Sequence record: PZ452596.1
Strand: one strand, 5' to 3'
Origin: a phage
Length of the DNA stretch: 64,000 nt
The translations under genes were made by a program, and so were the position numbers. The notes beneath the pieces are model-generated. The model did no database searches, had not been told where the DNA came from, and saw nothing but the letters and a program-made list of their open reading frames with translations. Shown here one piece after another: positions 50,278 to 52,226 of the stretch; position 1 is the first letter of the stretch, and each line of letters starts with the position of its first letter.

Positions 50278-50559
50278 CTAGCGATAAAAACCAAAATAAC
50301 GATTAGCTTCAATAATCTTTCTTTCTTCTTCGGACATTCTCCAGCGTAGTCCAACGTCAAAATGAGCCCAGACCATCTTAACAAATGCATTTATATCTTT
50401 AATATCTTCAATAATGAATGTTTTACTTTTCGAAGGTTGACTCGCTAATTTAACTTTATCATCTTCAAACAGGTCAAAAAGACCATATTCGTGAGCTCTT
50501 TTATAGCCTTTAATAGTTAAAGCTTCAGAAGAAGAAAATGGTGAATCTGTATTCTGCAA
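50278..50559 (-). CDS. hypothetical protein, possibly 3' part of a frame-disrupted gene
   Basis: 93-aa ORF begins at TTG; same frame stays open to 50673 with no ATG; upstream 28-codon ORF ends in another frame. Confidence 0.35.
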   Translation of the reverse strand: MQNTDSPFSSSEALTIKGYKRAHEYGLFDLFEDDKVKLASQPSKSKTFIIEDIKDINAFVKMVWAHFDVGLRWRMSEEERKIIEANRYFGFYR

Positions 50560-50900: not shown

Positions 50901-51104
50901 TCATGATTTATCACCATAGATGTCTCTCATCAATTTAAGCGCTGAGCGCTCTAATTTCTTTTCTTTCTCAGCACTAATCATTGATTTCATCCATTCTTCC
51001 GATTCGTTCTGCATTTCTTTATTTGCTTGTTCAACCCAACCATCATCAATATACATTGAGTTTGGTCTATTGAACCATTCAAGAATCTTCTTGAAAGCTT
51101 TCAT
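50901..51104 (-). CDS. hypothetical protein
   Basis: 67-aa ORF. Confidence 0.4.
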
Positions 51105-51564
51105 TTATTTTACCTAAAATAATAGTAGGAGCATCGTCAAATTTATGAATTTTTAGCAAATTTGGATTTAAATTATTCCATAAAGAGGTAATAAAATATG
51201 ATAGCGCACTTTCGTCCGTAATTATAAATTTATTTCCCTTATCTATTTTCCAGTCATATATTGAATCATATGAATAGAAGGACAATGGTTTATTATTATA
51301 ATATGCTTCACTAACATCAATATAGTTAGATTTAGTAAATGCTTGAATTGCCATAAATGGAGAATTTTGTACAGTTTCAATAATTCCGATCTTTTTAAGT
51401 TTTATTTCAACATCTTCTGGAATTGGCATTGAAATAAAATCTTCTACTAGATACATATTATTGTCATATCTTTTATCAATCATTACTGCTACGGTAATTG
51501 GAACATCCTTGACAAACGCCATACTAATACTATTGATAGACATTTCAAACAAAATTGCTTCCAT
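51079..51564 (-). CDS. hypothetical protein (mrh position in T4)
   Basis: 161 aa from MEAILFEMS; name by position only. Confidence 0.4.
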
Positions 51565-51572
51565 AATTTTCC

Positions 51573-51917
51573 TCAATCACAAGATGTAGATGAACAACTA
51601 GAATCACAAGAACTTCCGCATGAATCGCCCGTCCATACATGAACAGGAACATTAGTATCATATGAATCAGAACTAGATTGTGTATTCTGTGTGTTAGATG
51701 ATGTAGTAGGTACTGACCATCGCCAAGGATTTTTATAATATTCTTGGGCTTCTTCATAAGTCATAGTAACTGCTTCTACTGTTCCATCTCCCATATAAAC
51801 ATACTCAACTACAGTTAAAGGAAGGTAGTCATTTGAAATAGGAACTACACCTTCCCCAGGAGTCGTAGAGAAAAAATCCGTAAAGAAACTTTTAAACCAA
51901 TTAAAGATAAACATCAC
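51573..51917 (-). CDS. hypothetical protein with Cys/Ser-rich C-terminal tail
   Basis: 114 aa; hydrophobic N-terminus; C-terminus [18 protein letters not shown]. Confidence 0.45.
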
Positions 51918-52126
51918 AAAAATCCTCTTTGAAATTCGACTCTTTGAAATCCACCCCAGTCAGTATATCGCATTTCAGCATTGAACTCGACTGAACCATC
52001 TGCATGCATCATGAATGAATGCGTGACGACATCACAATCCCAGCTTTTCATACCCCATTTATCAGCGATAGCTTTATCAAGAACCTTCTGGAGGTCTTCA
52101 TTTGGTTTAATCCAACGATTTAACAT
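51914..52126 (-). CDS. hypothetical protein
   Basis: 70-aa ORF. Confidence 0.45.
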   Translation of the reverse strand: MLNRWIKPNEDLQKVLDKAIADKWGMKSWDCDVVTHSFMMHADGSVEFNAEMRYTDWGGFQRVEFQRGFL

Positions 52127-52204
52127 AGTGTTCTCCTCTATAAGATATTTTTATTATACCACACTCATTTTGACATGTAAACCATAAAATGAAAAAAGGA
52201 ATCC

Positions 52205-52226
52205 CGGAGGATTCCTTAAAATATTT
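52205..52226 (-). terminator. rho-independent terminator after soc
   Basis: AAGGAATCC-CGGA-GGATTCCTT hairpin followed on minus strand by TTTTTTTCATTTT. Confidence 0.75.

Follow-up and report, generated by a model that had tools for sequence, protein, structure and literature searches.

A conserved two-cysteine signature at the C-terminus of Mrh.1, a small early protein of T4-like phages

We analysed a stretch of phage DNA of 64,000 nucleotides (sequence record PZ452596.1; hereafter the window), focusing on mrh.1, a small gene on its minus strand whose product ends in a tail rich in Ser and Cys. The coding sequence with its stop codon occupies positions 51573-51914 (minus strand), running from an ATG at 51914 to a TGA at 51573-51575 and encoding 113 amino acids. 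The initial annotation of this open reading frame (ORF) had given 114 amino acids, a count that holds if translation is read from the GTG at 51917 but not from the ATG at 51914, which is the start used in RefSeq and in all homologues. The ORF and the sequence around it (1.6 kb) match Enterobacteria phage RB27 (NC_025448.1) at 100% identity; the copy in that genome is annotated as RB27_028, “hypothetical protein, mrh.1”, and many Tequatrovirus genomes are 91-97% identical over the 1.6 kb around the gene. The order of genes in RB27 is 56 (dCTPase), soc, mrh.2, mrh.1, mrh, srh, modA.4/.3/.2, modB, modA and srd; the position between modB and soc that had been proposed for the ORF is borne out, and the ORF corresponds to T4 mrh.1.

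The predicted protein belongs to a family that is already catalogued, with no function assigned in either Pfam DUF7206 (PF23836) or PHROG 2031. Its match to DUF7206 scores 103.1 bits against a gathering cut-off of 25.6 (E = 1.6e-29), with residues 3-113 aligned to positions 1-107 of the 107-position profile, and the match to PHROG 2031 extends over the full profile length (E = 2.8e-33). The DUF7206 profile covers the tail, fragments of which match profile positions 71-107 on their own (E between 3e-4 and 5e-3), and the hallmarks of the family (an N-terminal [WF]-[LI]-K helix, E-Y-x-Y-x-G-D-G, and a C-terminal S-C-D-S...S-C-D-COOH) are all present in the window protein, which is 96% identical to the RB68/T4-type cluster P0001. 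The literature that we searched contains no prior analysis of the tail, mrh.1 appearing there only in screen and supplementary tables.

The tail itself comprises residues 96-113 (51576-51629, minus strand; delimited from alignments A1 and A2, family statistics, codon usage and polymorphism), a stretch of 8 Ser, 4 Cys, 3 Asp, 2 Gly and 1 Thr. With Cys and Ser at 12 of its 18 positions, it is the richest 18-residue stretch in these residues among the 167 ATG-initiated ORFs of at least 50 amino acids in the window, the next best reaching 9 of 18. The probability of 12 or more in 18 at the amino-acid frequencies of the window is 1.3e-9, so that about 3e-5 such stretches would be expected in 64 kb. 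The Ser/Cys-rich tail first noticed in the sequence is real, and it is unique in the window by Cys and Ser content. All Cys residues of the protein are confined to its last 15 positions, in the T4-type spacing C-x3-C-x3-C-x4-C within a matrix of Ser, Gly, Asp and Thr, and Asp113 is the C-terminal residue. Alignment A1 identifies Cys107 (51594-51596, minus strand) and Cys112 (51579-51581, minus strand) as the pair common to the whole family, while Cys99 (51618-51620, minus strand) and Cys103 (51606-51608, minus strand) are extra residues of Tequatrovirus, found in place of Ser or Tyr. Origin of the tail from a tandem DNA repeat was rejected, as none was found (minimum score 30).

Single-sequence searches recovered only near-identical proteins and two distant ones, to which loci on viral contigs added further distant copies. 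A profile search returned 145 clusters, of which the best 120 were examined; removal of fragments and of two low-complexity false matches left 116 full-length clusters. (Searches of a phage collection with tblastn are uninformative on the tail, since the low-complexity filter masks it and the alignments end at residue 94.) The named relatives belong to T4-like phages of Escherichia, Salmonella, Enterobacter, Serratia, Cronobacter and Edwardsiella, and none was found in 185,579 bacterial and archaeal species genomes. Across the full-length clusters the protein ends in Cys-Asp in 114 of 116 and in Cys-Asn in the other 2, with nothing beyond, and SCD forms the last three residues in 107. Exactly two Cys residues are present in 106/116 clusters, and no Cys lies outside the last 25 residues in 109/116. 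The upstream Cys is followed by Asp in 104/116, within an S-C-D-S motif in 102/116, and is separated from the terminal one by 4-10 residues (6 in 57 clusters, 8 in 37) that are almost exclusively Ser or Gly. Taken family-wide, the last 20 residues are 44% Ser, 17% Asp, 15% Gly, 10% Cys and 8% Tyr. The motif is kept across genera that share only ~30-60% identity overall. The alternating Ser/Cys pattern described at the outset thus stands for Tequatrovirus but not for the family, which conserves two S-C-D motifs, the second at the C-terminus; because positions 99 and 103 are Ser or Tyr elsewhere, we regard the alternation as a Tequatrovirus elaboration of a two-Cys motif.

Among 22 distinct mrh.1 sequences from phage loci, the ratio of non-synonymous to synonymous polymorphism (pN/pS) is lowest in the tail (0.37), intermediate in the N-terminal domain (0.52) and highest in the linker (0.70), values which are rough because synonymous sites are near saturation. 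Within the tail, Ser codons alternate between TCN and AGY, and conserved Cys and Asp residues show TGT/TGC and GAT/GAC changes; conservation therefore acts on the protein rather than on the DNA.

Every full-length homologue found in these searches possesses the tail, and copies that lack it are only frameshifted or truncated fragments. Such copies, which may be sequencing errors or occasional pseudogenes, were seen at locus L007 (1501-1587) and in clusters P0005, P0006, P0008, P0009 and P0069 (metagenome contigs and phage ERS-1); P0006 continues in an alternative frame that also yields a 70-amino-acid ORF in the window, at 51545-51757 (minus strand). One full-length member, P0003 (Escherichia phage 235Ecol030PP, 164 amino acids), is a mosaic in which a T4-type N-terminal domain and a T4-type four-Cys tail enclose an RB69-type middle segment (EEIIRQPEKAGNVG...LPLNSKKLKEHLD...ATAVSSW), providing evidence for recombination inside mrh.1 and for a modular organisation of its product.

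Upstream of the tail, three further regions can be distinguished in the window protein. Residues 4-15 (51870-51905, minus strand) form a predicted amphipathic, aromatic-rich helix, identified from the AlphaFold model, the hydrophobic moment (0.45) and the family logo, within the motif M-I-x-[WF]-[LI]-K-N-[LF]-F. Averaged over 19 residues, Kyte-Doolittle hydropathy peaks at 0.84 in this protein, which is insufficient for a membrane span, and a transmembrane anchor was rejected; the hydrophobic N-terminus that had been reported is aromatic-rich and amphipathic but not membrane-spanning. Residues 34-66 (51717-51815, minus strand) are modelled as a hairpin-helix module (hairpin 34-40/46-52, helix 53-66), whose core motif, E-Y-[VI]-Y-[MV]-G-D-G-x-x-E at residues 37-47, reads EYVYMGDG in the window protein and contains a G-D-G and a final E that are invariant in 114/114 sequences. 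Residues 67-95 (51630-51716, minus strand) constitute a variable linker rich in Ser, Thr, Asn and Gln, predicted to be disordered from the predicted local distance difference test (pLDDT) and having the highest pN/pS in the gene. Neither its length nor its sequence is conserved across genera, and across the family the upstream Cys of the tail lies anywhere from 50 to 116 residues beyond the GDG. The protein as a whole is very acidic, with 14 Asp and Glu residues against 3 Lys and Arg.

Structure prediction was carried out for the window protein and for an RB69-type relative, P0014, each at an alignment depth of 117 sequences. The window model has a mean pLDDT of 59.8 and a predicted template modelling score (pTM) of 0.29, with its best block (79-88) in the hairpin-helix and values below 50 over residues 70-111. 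The P0014 model (mean pLDDT 60.0, pTM 0.20) contains a helix at 3-8, a hairpin at 28-32/38-42, which forms its best block (83), and later helices at 60-71 and 78-87, and 10-residue blocks over its tail average 47-53. Both of these independent AlphaFold models thus predict a disordered tail, with pLDDT values that are for the most part under ~53. A Foldseek search of the window model against the PDB returned nothing at E ≤ 0.001, its best hit (E = 2) being meaningless at a pTM of 0.29, and comparison of the family profile with the sequences of solved structures gave only a chance match (E = 0.66). Given a flexible tail with a penultimate Cys in every full-length relative found, the comparisons indicate that the tail is not a chance low-complexity run, and that it is probably the working end of Mrh.1.

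The surrounding sequence carries the signals expected of an expressed gene. A Shine-Dalgarno-like AAGAGGA, read from the sequence, lies at 51923-51929 (minus strand), ~9 nt upstream of the mrh.1 ATG. That ATG (51912-51914) shares one base with the TGA stop codon of mrh.2 (51914-51916; gTGAtg), an overlap which suggests translational coupling of the two genes and which recurs in distant phages: mrh.2 lies immediately upstream of mrh.1 at loci L008, L010, L012 and L014, overlapping it in the first three and separated from it by a short gap in L014. In the window, mrh.2 (51914-52126, minus strand; assigned from the ORF list, PHROG and the RB27 annotation) encodes 70 amino acids and belongs to PHROG 1873, which has no assigned function. 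At 52153-52181 (minus strand), 27 nt upstream of mrh.2, a consensus scan places a sigma-70 promoter-like TTTACA-17-TATAAT with a TG extension (11/12 matches), probably the early promoter of mrh.2-mrh.1-mrh-srh and consistent with the “early” class of the T4 mrh.1 transcript (PMC9697503 Table S2). The same kind of scan places a terminator-like hairpin immediately past the stop codon of soc (52196-52217, minus strand), its 9 bp stem leading into a T-run. At the other end of mrh.1, the GAGG Shine-Dalgarno sequence of mrh (51571-51574, minus strand; RefSeq mrh start ATG at 51562-51564) overlaps the mrh.1 stop codon. Conservation of the last codons as a downstream ribosome-binding site (RBS) was rejected, as the GAGG of RB27 overlaps only the stop codon and the Cys and Asp codons vary synonymously elsewhere.

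Several features of the neighbourhood vary between phages. The RB69/JS98-like phages (L008, L010 and L012; locus positions ~1500-2050) have no mrh separating mrh.1 from srh, and there the stop codon of mrh.1 abuts or overlaps the srh ATG. Locus L008 has a 223-amino-acid ORF between gene 56 and soc, a candidate homing endonuclease judged by its position, and RB27 has no ORF in this interval, where T4 has segF. An ORF at 50278-50559 of the window (minus strand), found also at L001 4542-4823, suggests a paralogue of Mrh a few genes downstream. The Mrh.2 motif V-H-S-F-M-M-H-x-D-G-S-x-E-F-N is conserved in Escherichia-phage copies and absent in Edwardsiella phage PEi20. The idea that Mrh.2 supplies metal ligands missing from Mrh.1 was rejected, since the Cys of its WDCDV is absent in other T4-type copies and HSFMMH is absent in PEi20. 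Three proteins of the cluster share W-[LI]-K near their N-termini: Srh (MKPLSWLKDWLxRPG in relatives; srh at 50901-51104), Mrh.1 (MIxWLKNLFKxKPGEG; 51870-51914) and Mrh.2 (MLNRWIKPN; 52090-52126), all on the minus strand. Alignment of the Mrh.1 and Srh profiles with hhalign covers the first 12 columns at a probability of 43% (P = 2.5e-4), which is not significant alone; the common N-terminus may be a docking peptide or a relic of duplication.

Published T4 data bear on whether the gene is used. Its transcript is early and its protein was not detected (PMC9697503 Table S2), a result to be expected given that the predicted tryptic peptides are 8, 53, 4 and 48 residues long and the two that make up most of the protein have 53 and 48. 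Knock-down of T4 mrh.1 by RBS-directed CRISPRi-ART (CRISPR interference through antisense RNA targeting) was scored “Semi-Fit” (gene score 0.79, listed value 0.069), placing it among only five T4 genes of purely unknown function that this genome-wide screen singled out as contributors to T4 fitness, and knock-downs of mrh.2, mrh, srh and soc were “Not Fit” (PMC11879866 supplement). Transposon insertions were recovered at 31/31 TA sites of mrh.1 on E. coli K-12 (bioRxiv 10.1101/2025.11.20.689424 supplement), so that the gene is non-essential on this host. Taken together, the sequence and transcription signals, the selection, the early T4 transcript, and the knock-down and transposon data identify mrh.1 as a genuine but accessory gene, whose laboratory phenotype is modest at most. 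Coding-level selection, the early transcript and the weak knock-down phenotype speak against an untranslated ORF, one of the two refuting outcomes named in the initial annotation; the other, absence of the tail in homologues, is contradicted by the full-length relatives.

What the tail does can be approached from the anatomy of Mrh.1, its conservation, the selection on its coding sequence, its early transcription in T4 and its laboratory dispensability, all of which are observed; from these we infer a thiol-based action of the tail and a target in another protein. The tail is conserved, is predicted to be flexible and carries two thiols, and its alignments indicate that the last thiol must adjoin a free C-terminus. 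We tentatively favour the explanation that the C-terminus is a tethered dithiol arm for reaching a metal or thiol site on a partner. The N-terminal helix and the hairpin-helix module (~35 residues) would probably dock Mrh.1 on a partner or surface, and a disordered tether, of ~45 residues in the window protein, would end in the arm. Its working end would be the invariant penultimate Cys; a Ser/Gly loop separates this residue from the second Cys, 4-10 residues upstream. The arm would enter a site on the partner protein that holds a metal centre, to be ligated by the terminal thiolate, or else a reactive Cys or persulfide, to be attacked by it, with the upstream Cys as second ligand or resolving thiol.

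We favour the dithiol arm because a penultimate Cys, a second Cys at variable distance and a small non-enzymatic body together make up a swinging-arm design. The variable Ser/Gly spacing between the Cys residues fits a flexible loop and not a rigid knuckle, and retention of the tail in the P0003 mosaic while the middle was exchanged counts in the same direction. A narrower and distinctly less probable version makes Mrh.1 the representative of a phage-only class of host-takeover effectors, tethered thiol warheads whose penultimate Cys, backed by the second, would enter the active site of a host enzyme and block or hijack it. Candidate targets could be a metal centre approached in the manner of a cysteine switch, for example in FtsH, or a persulfide or thiol relay such as IscS-Tus. 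FtsH, the membrane Zn-protease that controls sigma-32, would fit both the mrh/srh neighbourhood and the amphipathic N-terminal helix.

A number of points weigh against the dithiol arm. No partner protein of Mrh.1 is known, and neither Pfam, NCBIfam, structure nor Foldseek comparisons reveal a sequence or fold relation to carrier or redox families. T4 proteomics did not detect the protein (PMC9697503 Table S2), the gene tolerates transposons at every TA site on K-12, and the knock-down effect is weak and could be polar. Finally, the Asp that follows each Cys and the Tyr-to-Cys exchanges of the T4 type fit metal chelation at least as well.

Chelation is accordingly a close rival, which we also regard as possible and only a little more doubtful. 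Here the tail would bind a soft or borderline metal (Zn2+, Fe2+, Cu+, or an Fe-S cluster bridged in a dimer) through two Cys, two Asp and the terminal carboxylate, or through four Cys in the T4 type, and Mrh.1 would be a small metal buffer, a chaperone or a metal-dependent switch. The composition of the T4-type tail, with its C-x3-C-x3-C-x4-C spacing, is metallothionein-like, Asp follows each conserved Cys, and Tyr or Ser positions of other genera have become Cys in Tequatrovirus, adding ligands; there is also an architectural echo of PF12669, although the match falls short of significance (8.5 bits where 27 is the cut-off, E = 3.2). Against this, 106/116 clusters have only two Cys residues and the tail has no His, the spacing of 4-10 residues provides no fixed CxxC-type arrangement of ligands, and no metal-binding family is matched (Pfam at E ≤ 1, NCBIfam at E ≤ 10). 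To our knowledge, a protein end directly after Cys-Asp is not typical of chelating tails. Chelation therefore explains the conserved Asp and the Tequatrovirus gain of Cys better than the dithiol arm does, and the terminal constraint and variable spacing less well; metal binding by the tail, as raised in the initial annotation, remains plausible.

Alternatively, the S-C-D-COOH end could be a short linear motif for docking or turnover that is read by a host protein such as a protease adaptor or a peptide-binding domain, with Cys needed for recognition and not for chemistry. The invariance of Cys at -2, and of the C-terminal position itself, in 116/116 clusters would suit such a signal, as would the disorder of the tail in the AlphaFold models and the annotation of the neighbours mrh and srh as acting on the host sigma-32 and heat-shock circuit. 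We nevertheless hold it to be unlikely, as it leaves unexplained both the second conserved S-C-D-S motif and the use of Cys, over any other small residue, at the two positions, and we know of no E. coli C-terminal recognition motif that resembles S-C-D.

The remaining explanations fare considerably worse. A precursor resembling those of ribosomally synthesized and post-translationally modified peptides, with an N-terminal leader and a Ser/Cys/Asp tail as the modified core (thioether, azoline or similar), is very improbable: a C-terminus rich in Cys, Ser and Thr would be in keeping with it, and residues 95-109 give a sub-threshold match to the core of TIGR04363 (FxLD lanthipeptide; E = 0.034, 14.1 bits against a cut-off of 30), but in other genera the two-Cys tails give no such match, and 113 amino acids with a folded module and a long linker are atypical of a precursor. 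No modifying enzyme is found among the annotated neighbours 56, soc, mrh.2, mrh, srh, modA.2-4, modB, modA and srd, similar kinds of neighbours are seen at distant loci, and absence of the family from the bacterial and archaeal species genomes implies that it never lies beside a maturase there. That the tail is neutral low-complexity sequence, or the ORF untranslated, we consider more improbable still; lack of detection by proteomics and dispensability on K-12 would agree with it, but the former is expected from the long tryptic peptides, and conservation of the motif across genera, the lowest pN/pS in the gene, the ribosome-binding site with start/stop coupling, and the rarity of truncated copies, which are only frameshifts or fragments, mean that the comparative data largely refute it. 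Lipidation of the tail as a membrane anchor (S-acylation or prenylation), which had also been proposed, is least likely of all, for although the only Cys residues lie near the C-terminus and the N-terminus is aromatic, the protein has neither a signal peptide nor a lipobox, a CaaX end would require Cys at -4 where the conserved one is at -2, the tail is polar and acidic to a strong degree, down to its C-terminal Asp, and we know of no C-terminal protein lipidation pathway in E. coli.

Even in T4, one of the phages studied most thoroughly, many genes have yet to be assigned a function, and most of these are small and early. For mrh.1, the two conserved Cys residues (the last invariant), a C-terminus that must stay free and a disordered tether provide a testable handle, and, judging from the genes next to it, a target might be sought in the heat-shock and sigma-32 circuit, among other places. 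We see the two-Cys signature, with its invariant Cys-Asp/Asn end, less as a surprise than as a useful lead that can be tested; should the tail do no more than bind metal, or play a minor part, the gain would be a better annotation of DUF7206.

Compared with known systems, Mrh.1 lacks a defining feature of each of the PF12669, FxLD precursor, metallothionein/zinc-finger, lipoprotein and CaaX classes. It shares with PF12669 (FeoB-associated Cys-rich small membrane proteins) an N-terminal hydrophobic element and a C-terminal segment rich in Cys, Ser and Gly, but has no transmembrane helix, and most of its relatives have only two Cys residues; the T4-type tail resembles metallothionein in composition. 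Srh, the neighbouring T4 “sigma-32 decoy”, resembles it in an N-terminal x-W-[LI]-K-x-[WL]-[LF]-x-x-P-G and in belonging to the same early gene cluster, although the likeness is limited to ~12 residues and Srh has no Cys tail. A parallel in design is offered by the flexible, Gly/Ser-rich C-termini with one or two Cys near the end that are found in the class Ia ribonucleotide reductase subunit R1, MsrA, MerA, mammalian thioredoxin reductase and the GGCGG arm of SoxY, which shuttle electrons or sulfur into an active site, a logic also followed by TusE. Except in SoxY, such redox tails serve their own enzyme, whereas Mrh.1 has no enzyme domain and would have to act on some other protein.

A further likeness is to DsrC/TusE, which are also small (~100 amino acids), with a flexible C-terminus and a penultimate Cys. 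In DsrC the flexible C-terminus is the active part, sulfur being carried on the penultimate Cys111, with Cys100 ten residues upstream (PMC3397948); in Mrh.1 the second Cys lies 4-10 residues upstream. The differences are that the body of Mrh.1 is a tiny hairpin-helix where DsrC has a globular domain, that its arm is much longer, rich in Ser and Asp and ends in Asp, and that no sulfur-relay partner is encoded near mrh.1. No match to DsrC/TusE (PF04358 / TIGR03342) was obtained at E ≤ 1 in Pfam, where only DUF7206 was returned, or at E ≤ 10 in NCBIfam. The penultimate Cys that characterises the DsrC/TusE arm is nonetheless present in all 116 of the 116 Mrh.1 clusters, a resemblance of design and not of membership.

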